From Escherichia coli (GTDB taxonomy: Bacteria; Pseudomonadota; Gammaproteobacteria; Enterobacterales; Enterobacteriaceae): a DNA stretch of 64,000 nt. Below, in pieces: positions 6,001 to 9,000 of this stretch (position 1 is its first letter; each line of letters starts with the position of its first letter). The DNA lies in assembly GCF_030013205.1 (NCBI RefSeq), contig NZ_CP122648.1; one strand, given 5' to 3'. Position numbers: made by a program.

Positions 6001-9000
6001 TGTGAATTTATACTCTACCGAACCAGTAAAGCGGGTATTTACCAGCCTTATTATAAAATAAACCTGTCAAAAGCCCGAATATCAAGTATTGATTTTGTCA
6101 CACCGCATGCTGTCCTGGAAAAAGAACTGGAGCCACAGGAGAGAATTGCCTTTATTTATGAAGATATTTCCTGGGAGCATACGTTAGCCGGTACGAATGC
6201 AATGAGTAAATGGCAGGATCGTGTACAGTAATTTACTGTAATAACATAATAAATTACTATTGCGGAGAGATATAATGGCTGGTTTAAGGAATAATAACAA
6301 CACACAGAATGCACAGTGGGCTGATTATGTGGGTGACATTCTTCGGGGGGCTCAACCGATAAACCAGCTAGTACCTCAGCACCCTTATCTTAACGACGTC
6401 CCACTCATTGATGAATTAAGGCGTCAGAACACTCATCATGTTATTCTCTTGACACTTGATGTTGCAAAAAAAATACTCAGCTCAATAACATCATTTGATT
6501 ACATTCATTTTATCACTACACATCCTTCAGGTATAAAAGATACACTCGCTTGGTTAGTTAACGCGGGTAAATTAATGACTGAGTTTGATGGAAATGGGAA
6601 AATTATATTTAACTTTAATACCTTAAAGTATACAAAAGCAAGTTACTTTGAAATACTTGGAGAGAAATATATAAAAATTACAACATCCAGCCCCTGGCTT
6701 TTAGAAAAGCTCGGTAAATATATTTTCTCTTCACGAGCGCCTCAAGTTCTGGAACTCGCTATTGGCTGGCGAGGAGCTTTATCTGAATCAATAAAAGGAG
6801 TTAAGTTCTGTATCTGGTTTTCAGTAGCCTGGAGAACCATAGAATTTATTATGAGTTCAGAGCGAGATCTGGTTAATTTTCTTGGTGATTTTTCAATGGA
6901 TGTGGCCAAAGCAGTGATTGCAGGCGGTGTTGCAACTGCTATTGGAAGCCTGGCTTCTTTTGCCTGTCTTAGTTTTGGCCTTCCAGTAATTCTTGTAGGA
7001 GGAGCAATTTTACTTACAGGGATAGTGTGTACAGTTGTTTTAAATGAAATCGATGCTCAATACCATTTATCAGAAAAATTAAAAGATGCAATTAGAGATG
7101 GACTAAAACGGCAACAGGAACTTGATAAATGGAAAAGGGAAAACATGACTCCATTTATGTATGTTCTTAACACTCCCCCCGTGATATGAGGATTAACTAT
7201 GCGTTTACATGTTAAATTGAAAGAGTTTTTTTCGATGTTTTTTATAGCCATGTTATTTTTCCCTGCATTCAATGCTTCTTTATTTTTTACCGGAATTAAA
7301 CCTCTATATTCAATAATAAAAGGCTCCACGGAAATATTTTATGATTGGAGAATGTTGATTCTATGCTTCGGTTTCATATCGTTTTCCTTGTTAAATATTC
7401 ATGTAATTTTACTAACAATAATAAAATCATTCTTAATAAAAAAAACAAAGGTAATCAATTTCGCCACAGACATAACAATACAGCTAACTCTTATATTTTT
7501 ACTAATAGCTATCGTAATAGCACCTTTAATAGCTCCTTTTGTCACAGGATATGTCAATGCTAATTATCACCCCTGCGGTAATAACACGGGGATTTTCCCA
7601 GGAGCAATCTATATTAAAAATGGCATAAAATGTAATAATGAACATATTTCTCGCAAGGAAGATTAAGCAGTTAAATAATTAAATATTCTAAAACAAACAG
7701 TTTTTAACACCGGATTCCATGTCCTTTCTTGCACTGTCTTTGTCAGGAACAATTTCTTATGCAAAGAATTTTGTATTATTGCCGCCAGAAATTCCTGGCG
7801 GCAGATATAATTTATTATTGATAGCGGTTAACCAAATCTTTTACCATCGCTTTATAGGTCTTTTGCTTAAGTTGTATGATTTGCTGCTCTGTCATATCAG
7901 TCGTACTGGCTTCATTCTTGCCGGGAAATGGTGGAAGCACTTTATATTCATAATTCACCGGCGACCAGGCAGCCCACTCACCTGTAGCTACATCCACCAG
8001 CGTGAATCGCACCAGATAGCGCAGTGAGATTGTGTTAGTCAGTTTTTCATTTTTATAATCGGACCATACTGTTGATTTCAGTGCAGTGTCATATTTTCCT
8101 GTCTGCAACGTATCCTGGTAAACAATAATCGCTTTCTGATGGCCTTTTGCCGCCACAAAACGTAATGCCTGCATCCAGTTCATATTTTCAGCACTGGCAA
8201 CATCCTCGTTCTCATTTTTATCTTTGTTTTTGTTACAAGTCAGAGGCTTTTGTCTGTCCGGGATACCAGAGAATGTGGAAACAGTATAATATTTTCGCAT
8301 CTCCTCCTGCATAATGGTTTCCGGTGCGCGGTTGCCGGATTGAACAAGTATTACAGGTGAATTAAGGGGAACGCGGAACTCATCTCCATCAAGCGCAGCT
8401 TGAATATCCTCCTCGGATACGGCTAGTGTGGTTTCATTACCAAATAAGTCTTTGTCTGTTAGTTGCTGCGGAGCGTTTTTATTAAAATTACTTTGTGTGG
8501 TTTGAGCTTTTTTCTTCTTTTCATCAATAAGAGATTCAGAGACACATCCTGCAAGCAGCGAGAATAATACATATATACAACAAACCTTTTTTGAATTCAA
8601 AATCGGACACTCCCTCGTCTGTCATAATCATGGTAATGTTTAGCTAACGATTTTTAATTATATACTCCACTTGAATCAGAACAAACAAAAATAATATTAA
8701 ATATTAATTCATTAAATCAATAGAATAATAAAAATTATAACATGGAAATATATTTAAATTGAATGATTCGCTGGTATTATTAAATATTAATGAATGGTCA
8801 ATCATATATAATTACCACATTTACAGCATAACAAAATAATTGAACGAAGAAATTGTGGGGTTTAAATAAAATAAATATCCTCCGGCATAGCCGGAGGTTT
8901 TTCAAATGCGCCTATAAGGCTCTCTTACCAGCCGCGCCCTAACAGGCGCACACGATCTGACATTTGCATCCAACTTCGTTACTTACGGCCCGTAAACGGG

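Follow-up and report, generated by a model that had tools for sequence, protein, structure and literature searches.

Upstream of the lipoprotein gene yafT, a 64,000-nucleotide stretch of Escherichia coli DNA (contig NZ_CP122648.1; the whole of it is called the window here) carries very AT-rich DNA in which the same 14-bp sequence, TATTAAATATTAAT, occurs twice, and the question raised by this locus is whether that repeat is a regulatory element or an accident of composition. The gene lies at one edge of a type VI secretion system (T6SS) island that is anchored at the tRNA gene aspV. A first-pass annotation had described the DNA upstream of yafT as a typical binding platform for the nucleoid proteins H-NS and Fis that may silence the adjacent, horizontally acquired genes. 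Our reading, to which we give a probability of roughly 65%, is that yafT has its promoter and leader within positions 8601-8868, at the aspV edge of the T6SS island, that this region is prone to silencing, and that the repeat within it is incidental. The spacer between yafT and its upstream neighbor is an ordinary region of a well-described, already known kind. Positions 8400-9720 of the window are 100% identical to E. coli strain K_EC180, and the features on which the argument turns are as follows.

8601-8868, strand not applicable: AT-rich spacer upstream of yafT, delimited by composition and by comparison with the empty site in strain 7/2
7815-8600, minus strand: yafT coding sequence for a 261-aa lipoprotein with the lipobox LLAGC (open reading frame list and RefSeq annotation of K_EC180)
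8695-8708, plus strand: copy 1 of TATTAAATATTAAT, exact match
8778-8791, plus strand: copy 2 of TATTAAATATTAAT, exact match

A pattern search found TATTAAATATTAAT exactly twice in the window, both times on the plus strand and 83 bp apart. The two direct copies noticed at first pass are therefore real, although they had been placed 2 nt too low and about 80 bp apart. Each copy is a 7-bp tandem (TATTAAA TATTAAT), so that the hexamer TATTAA is present four times (P = 0.004). Shuffling the 266-bp stretch 8601-8866 5000 times with its dinucleotides preserved produced an exact repeat of 14 nt or more with P = 0.0024, and a local self-alignment of the two spacer halves scored above 99.5% of shuffles (P = 0.005). 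Internal repeats of at least 12 nt were found in six 268-bp scanning windows (five sites) across the 64 kb, with the yafT spacer among them. The repeat is nominally unusual on the local scale (P about 0.002 to 0.005), but it was picked by eye after inspection of the sequence. A repeat finder with an 8-nt seed missed the pair, which was confirmed via the pattern search. Near-matches to the 14-mer elsewhere in the window track AT content, 9 of the 11 lying in an AT-rich block at about 5700-8900.

Functional repeats and low-complexity coincidences can be told apart by comparing alleles. We searched 5426 complete E. coli genomes for the spacer and read conservation from an alignment of 8 representative sequences that cover three alleles. 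The spacer is present in 4195 of the genomes, in three deep alleles, and absent from 1231.

Allele A: at least 99% identity to the window; 259 genomes (about 5%); the window, K_EC180 and 7/2
Allele B: about 90% identity; 1390 genomes in the 80-95% bands; 19SZHZ663Rt and SF-166
Allele C: about 72-75% identity; 2546 genomes; K-12 and O157:H7

Across the 8 representatives, 179 of the 268 spacer columns (67%) are invariant. Copy 1 is among the least conserved spots of the spacer, with 7 of its 14 columns invariant; the corresponding sequence is CAGCAAATATAAAT or CAGTATATATAAAT in allele B and TTTGAAATATACAT in K-12, and each of these matches TATTAAATATTAAT at 10 of 14 positions. Copy 2 has 11 of 14 invariant columns; its counterparts, GATTAAATATTAAT in allele B and TATTGAATTTTAAT in allele C, match at 12 to 13 of 14 positions. 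Self-similarity of the spacer is significant in allele A only (P = 0.005, compared with P = 0.54 in K-12 and P = 0.66 in allele B), and the lack of it in alleles B and C rules out an ancient duplication as the origin of the repeat. When allele C is taken as the outgroup, copy 1 in the common ancestor of A and B probably differed from copy 2 by one or two substitutions, and because of this the exact repeat needs no special mechanism. On the evidence of these alignments, the repeat is a property of one lineage and not of the locus. Since the alleles of most E. coli do not share it, it is best read as incidental: the two TATTAAATATTAAT copies would be a by-product of drift in low-complexity, AT-rich DNA within one allele lineage and not discrete, selected binding sites.

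What is best conserved in the spacer lies next to yafT. The yafT-proximal 90 bp hold the ribosome-binding site and leader (8601-8660), the -10 block, and the block next to the -35, and the Shine-Dalgarno neighborhood is the most conserved part of the whole spacer (18 of 20 columns invariant). The following elements were placed in this part.

8610-8616, minus strand: yafT Shine-Dalgarno sequence GAGGGAG, from the sequence
8657-8662, minus strand: predicted yafT -10, TATAAT, from the sequence; invariant in all aligned alleles
8679-8684, minus strand: predicted yafT -35, TTGTTC (TTGTTA in K-12), at a 16-bp spacing, from the sequence and a K-12 scan

The predicted TATAAT is contained in an invariant block, TAATTATATAC (8655-8665), and the block adjoining the -35, AACAAAC-AAAA, is conserved across alleles. 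In a promoter scan, the orthologous K-12 site scores TTGTTA-16-TATAAT, 10/12. We put forward TTGTTC-16-TATAAT as a candidate sigma-70 promoter of yafT, from which transcription is predicted to begin near 8650 and to give a leader of about 50 nt. Judging from the sequence and its conservation, RNA polymerase would thus initiate on the minus strand some 50 nt ahead of the TTG codon. This start codon (8598-8600, minus strand) is TTG here and ATG in K-12, a single substitution that may lower the initiation of yafT translation. An RNA element in the spacer was ruled out: no RNA family was found there with Rfam at E up to 1, and the predicted leader, which shows no unusual RNA structure, folds no better than shuffled sequence (z = -0.04).

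A separate observation in the same DNA is a perfect 10-bp inverted repeat (TAATTATATA / TATATAATTA) at 8655-8664 and 8805-8814, with 140 bp between its arms. The predicted yafT -10 falls in the left arm, and a perfect TATAAT is found in the right arm on the plus strand (8807-8812). The right arm is not conserved in alleles B or C.

The predicted start bears on the alternative that survives best. Relative to it, copy 1 lies at about -44 to -57 and copy 2 at about -127 to -140, and the former is the position of an UP element, an A/T-rich stretch at -40 to -60 that contacts the alpha subunits of RNA polymerase. Copy 1, which is pure A/T, might thus stimulate the yafT promoter, with copy 2 irrelevant. 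However, the start site is a prediction, and the stretch varies between alleles, though every version of it stays A/T-rich. We consider an UP-element role for copy 1 unlikely. If the repeat is incidental, copy 1 would have come to occupy this position by chance, and both copies would add TpA-rich DNA to the spacer.

The composition of the spacer is where the argument for silencing begins. At 23.9% GC (76.1% AT), it stands at the 99.87th percentile for AT content among all 268-bp windows of the 64 kb, which bears out the initial impression of a strikingly AT-rich region upstream of yafT. It forms the aspV-side end of the AT-rich block mentioned above (3.3 kb, 24-45% GC), which comprises hcp, a gene for a 309-aa protein, ykfM, and yafT; the T6SS core genes directly upstream of the block have 53-58% GC. 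TpA steps make up 13.5% of the spacer, compared with 4.5% of the whole window, a threefold enrichment. H-NS is reported to prefer flexible, TpA-rich DNA, and the enrichment fits this preference. The TpA richness suggests that the spacer DNA is flexible, not curved.

Curvature was predicted with our own implementation of the wedge model, using the Bolshoy-Trifonov parameters reported by Bolshoy et al. in 1991; for a phased A6 control it returned 27.8 degrees per turn. The mean for the spacer is 6.75 degrees per turn, which corresponds to the 46th percentile of the window; the highest value, 14.7, is reached at 8818, and both TATTAAATATTAAT copies fall in the least curved parts of the spacer. 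A/T runs of 4 nt or longer occur at only four places (8651, 8687, 8730, and 8833), and their spacings of 36, 43, and 103 bp are not in helical phase. Intrinsically curved promoter-upstream DNA is not supported, given these few, unphased A-tracts and the average predicted curvature. The curved-DNA-like A/T tracts that had been described here did not withstand the curvature prediction proposed as their check.

Published work on the orthologous loci supplies the remainder of the argument. In K-12, yafT marks a transcriptionally silent extended protein occupancy domain (tsEPOD); a lac-gfp reporter inserted there was silenced, and the silencing was lifted when the domain (MG1655 237530-239300) was replaced (Bryant et al., PMC4191405). 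Additionally, yafT ranked as a site of low transcriptional propensity, and such troughs have in general been linked to H-NS binding and low GC (PMC9561378); H-NS is generally reported to bind DNA this AT-rich (PMC9561378, introduction). In enterohemorrhagic E. coli (EHEC) EDL933, the aspV-linked T6SS island is nearly silent in vitro, and deleting hns strongly raises the expression of its genes (PMC5363993). The IPOD-HR supplements, for their part, make no mention of yafT. The spacer in the window resembles DNA subject to xenogeneic silencing in that its AT content is high over hundreds of base pairs and its location is horizontally acquired and strain variable. From this composition and from the orthologous K-12 and EHEC loci, H-NS-type coating is plausible as the most likely regulatory context of the spacer. 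With such AT and TpA richness, the spacer and the genes next to it would be bound by H-NS-type xenogeneic silencers, which coat DNA of this kind and keep the island genes silent.

The Fis (GNNYRWWWWWYRNNC) and IHF (WATCAANNNNTTR) consensus sequences have zero matches in the spacer on either strand, and CRP half-site patterns and Dam (GATC) sites are likewise absent from it. The proposal of a nucleoid-protein platform is reasonable in its general form, in view of the AT-richest DNA of the window, its TpA richness, its place at the edge of a strain-variable T6SS island, the K-12 silent domain, and the EHEC hns effect. Its H-NS and Fis specifics are not supported, given the lack of Fis and IHF matches, an H-NS motif with 2 mismatches at best, average curvature, and a repeat that is not conserved.

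Several points weigh against the reading as a silencer-prone promoter region with an incidental repeat. Hexamers resembling a -10 are frequent in AT-rich DNA, and the promoter is predicted from sequence. The high-affinity H-NS motif TCGATAAATT, reportedly the consensus of Lang et al. from 2007, has a single match in the spacer, with 2 mismatches (8838-8847); exact copies of it occur elsewhere in the window. Given its local improbability (P about 0.002), the repeat might have a non-random origin, e.g., templated mutation or selection in allele A. The K-12 spacer corresponds to 237071-237334 and thus lies outside the domain replaced in K-12, which borders on it and has its start 196 bp into yafT. 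Finally, in a CRISPR interference promoter-response set (PPTP-seq), the plasmid-borne K-12 yafT promoter has no hns response in the part of the tables considered here.

Two further K-12 observations concern other regulators. In the same part of the PPTP-seq tables, the activity of the K-12 yafT promoter goes up after nadR knock-down in glycerol, and a NadR peak (5.7-fold) is given from DNA affinity purification sequencing (DAP-seq). No convincing NadR box was found at this promoter, and in allele A the sequence of the stretch concerned is different. Genomic SELEX places an RpoS-holoenzyme peak at K-12 238050, in the 3' part of yafT, between aspV and ykfM and outside the spacer.

Some of these results would also be expected if the spacer were weakly constrained DNA with no nucleoid-protein role, its AT content a legacy of the history of the island and yafT expression low through a weak promoter and the TTG codon. 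At 73.5% identity to its K-12 counterpart, the spacer is far more diverged than the neighboring yafT coding sequence (94.3%) and dnaQ (97%); relaxed constraint, old recombination, and diversifying selection are candidate causes of this divergence. The missing hns response of the K-12 promoter in the PPTP-seq tables and the exclusion of the spacer from the replaced silent domain agree with weak constraint as well. However, 76% AT over 268 bp beside a documented silent domain is H-NS-type DNA (PMC9561378), and the related EHEC island responds to hns deletion (PMC5363993). An absence of any nucleoid-protein role is, in our judgment, more doubtful still than an UP element.

The repeat could alternatively represent paired operators for a specific protein, or preferred H-NS nucleation sites, that allow bridging or looping over the yafT promoter in allele A. 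The two exact copies and the four TATTAA hexamers exceed local chance at the P values given above (0.0024 and 0.005 for the copies and 0.004 for the hexamers), their 83-bp spacing is close to 8 helical turns and places them on roughly the same face of the helix, and copy 2 is fairly well conserved. For iterated operators, though, copies beyond chance are one half of what is expected, and the other half, conservation in orthologous regions, is missing: copy 1 is poorly conserved, and alleles B and C, which are those of most genomes, lack the repeat. The spacer also offers no Fis, IHF, or CRP half-site match and no Dam sites, and the near-matches to the 14-mer follow AT content. Paired operators are therefore a very improbable explanation. 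That the in-phase TATTAAATATTAAT pair was fixed in allele A because H-NS, StpA, or an unknown AT-hook-type regulator preferentially nucleates or bridges there is the least probable of all. Were it true, the yafT promoter of allele A would be tighter or differently regulated than those of alleles B and C, and the pair would be a modest case from nature in which point mutation created silencer sites.

Read as the probable, silencer-prone promoter and leader region of yafT, the spacer is a typical AT-rich island-edge promoter region, of a kind known in or beside silent, protein-coated K-12 domains, and as such it matters little. The repeat illustrates that an eye-catching exact repeat in AT-rich DNA can arise by accident in a single allele. 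Comparing three alleles over 5426 genomes is a simple, reusable test for separating functional repeats from low-complexity coincidences.

On its aspV side, the spacer is bounded by an insertion sequence, and this boundary is made up of the following features.

8868-9578 or 8869-9579 (1-bp ambiguity), minus strand: IS200C insertion, 711 bp; the empty site is found in strain 7/2, also allele A
8979-9488, minus strand: IS200C tnpA; Pfam Y1_Tnp, E = 5e-38; RefSeq 'IS200C family transposase'
8879-8897: subterminal hairpin at the yafT-facing end of IS200C (CCTCCGG-CAT-AGCCGGAGG), terminator-like on both strands
9447-9570, minus strand: IS200 5' leader RNA (Rfam STnc490), 146 bits, E = 1.5e-31
9583-9617, minus strand: aspV intrinsic terminator, from terminator scans of the empty-site strain and K-12, mapped to the window

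IS200C, inserted about 268 bp upstream of yafT, directly follows the T-run of the aspV terminator and occurs at this yafT-aspV site in only 12 of the 5426 genomes. It would be a recent addition, unrelated to the repeat. The uninterrupted yafT-aspV spacer, as in strains without the insertion, is 329 bp long (8601-8868 plus 9580-9640). The region outlined at first pass, 8600-8872, was thus correct in covering the DNA upstream of yafT from 8601, but its end at 8872 falls inside IS200C, which starts at 8868 or 8869. Two small open reading frames in the spacer were rejected: in allele C, a 7-bp indel disrupts the frame of 8704-8805, and 8798-8905 runs into IS200C.

The remaining genes around the spacer lie as follows.

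5749-6231, plus strand: hcp
6260-7189, plus strand: gene for the 309-aa protein
7199-7666, plus strand: ykfM
9641-9717, minus strand: aspV, tRNA-Asp (GTC), the anchor of the island (ARAGORN and Rfam tRNA)

The gene order is hcp, the 309-aa gene, ykfM, yafT, spacer, IS200C, aspV terminator, aspV, dnaQ. In the RefSeq annotation of K_EC180, the island between yafV and aspV is about 21 kb long, and yafT is the island gene nearest aspV. The yafT gene is 94.3% identical to that of K-12 at the nucleotide level and 93.5% at the protein level, and its product has no Pfam domain. The 309-aa protein and YkfM have no Pfam match either; they could be an Hcp-linked effector/immunity pair. A second AT maximum lies at about 7176-7570, inside ykfM. 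The aspV T6SS cluster is partly degraded according to RefSeq: tssH is truncated, lacks its C-terminus, and abuts an N-terminally truncated gene for a VasL-domain protein; tagH has an internal stop; and an Rhs gene is truncated. The T6SS apparatus of this strain is, on this gene content, probably non-functional. The longest internal repeat of the window, a hexanucleotide tandem (CAGAGT)n with CAGAAT variants, is at 4442-4537, in the truncated tssH pseudogene region.

Four known systems can be compared with the locus. The IS200/IS605 family is matched by the insertion in its length of 711 bp, Y1 transposase, subterminal hairpins, STnc490 leader, and clean empty site; here, IS200C is a neighbor and not the finding itself, and it cuts the region first outlined at 8868. 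Phased A-tract curved DNA, as found upstream of H-NS- or Fis-regulated promoters, shares a high A/T content with the spacer, which differs in that its A-tracts are few and unphased and its predicted curvature is at the median of the window. The likeness to a sigma-70 promoter with an UP-like region consists of the conserved TATAAT, the TTGTTC or TTGTTA -35 at 16 bp, and the A/T-only stretch at -40 to -60; unlike in that system, the yafT promoter is a predicted one, and the stretch upstream of it varies between alleles. The closest comparison is with the K-12 yafT tsEPOD and H-NS silencing. Although the published domain starts inside yafT and not in the spacer, and the window has another spacer allele and a much larger island remnant, both have the orthologous yafT-aspV locus in a strain-variable island, with an AT-rich block over yafT, ykfM, and their neighbors, and it is from this likeness that we infer occupancy in the window.

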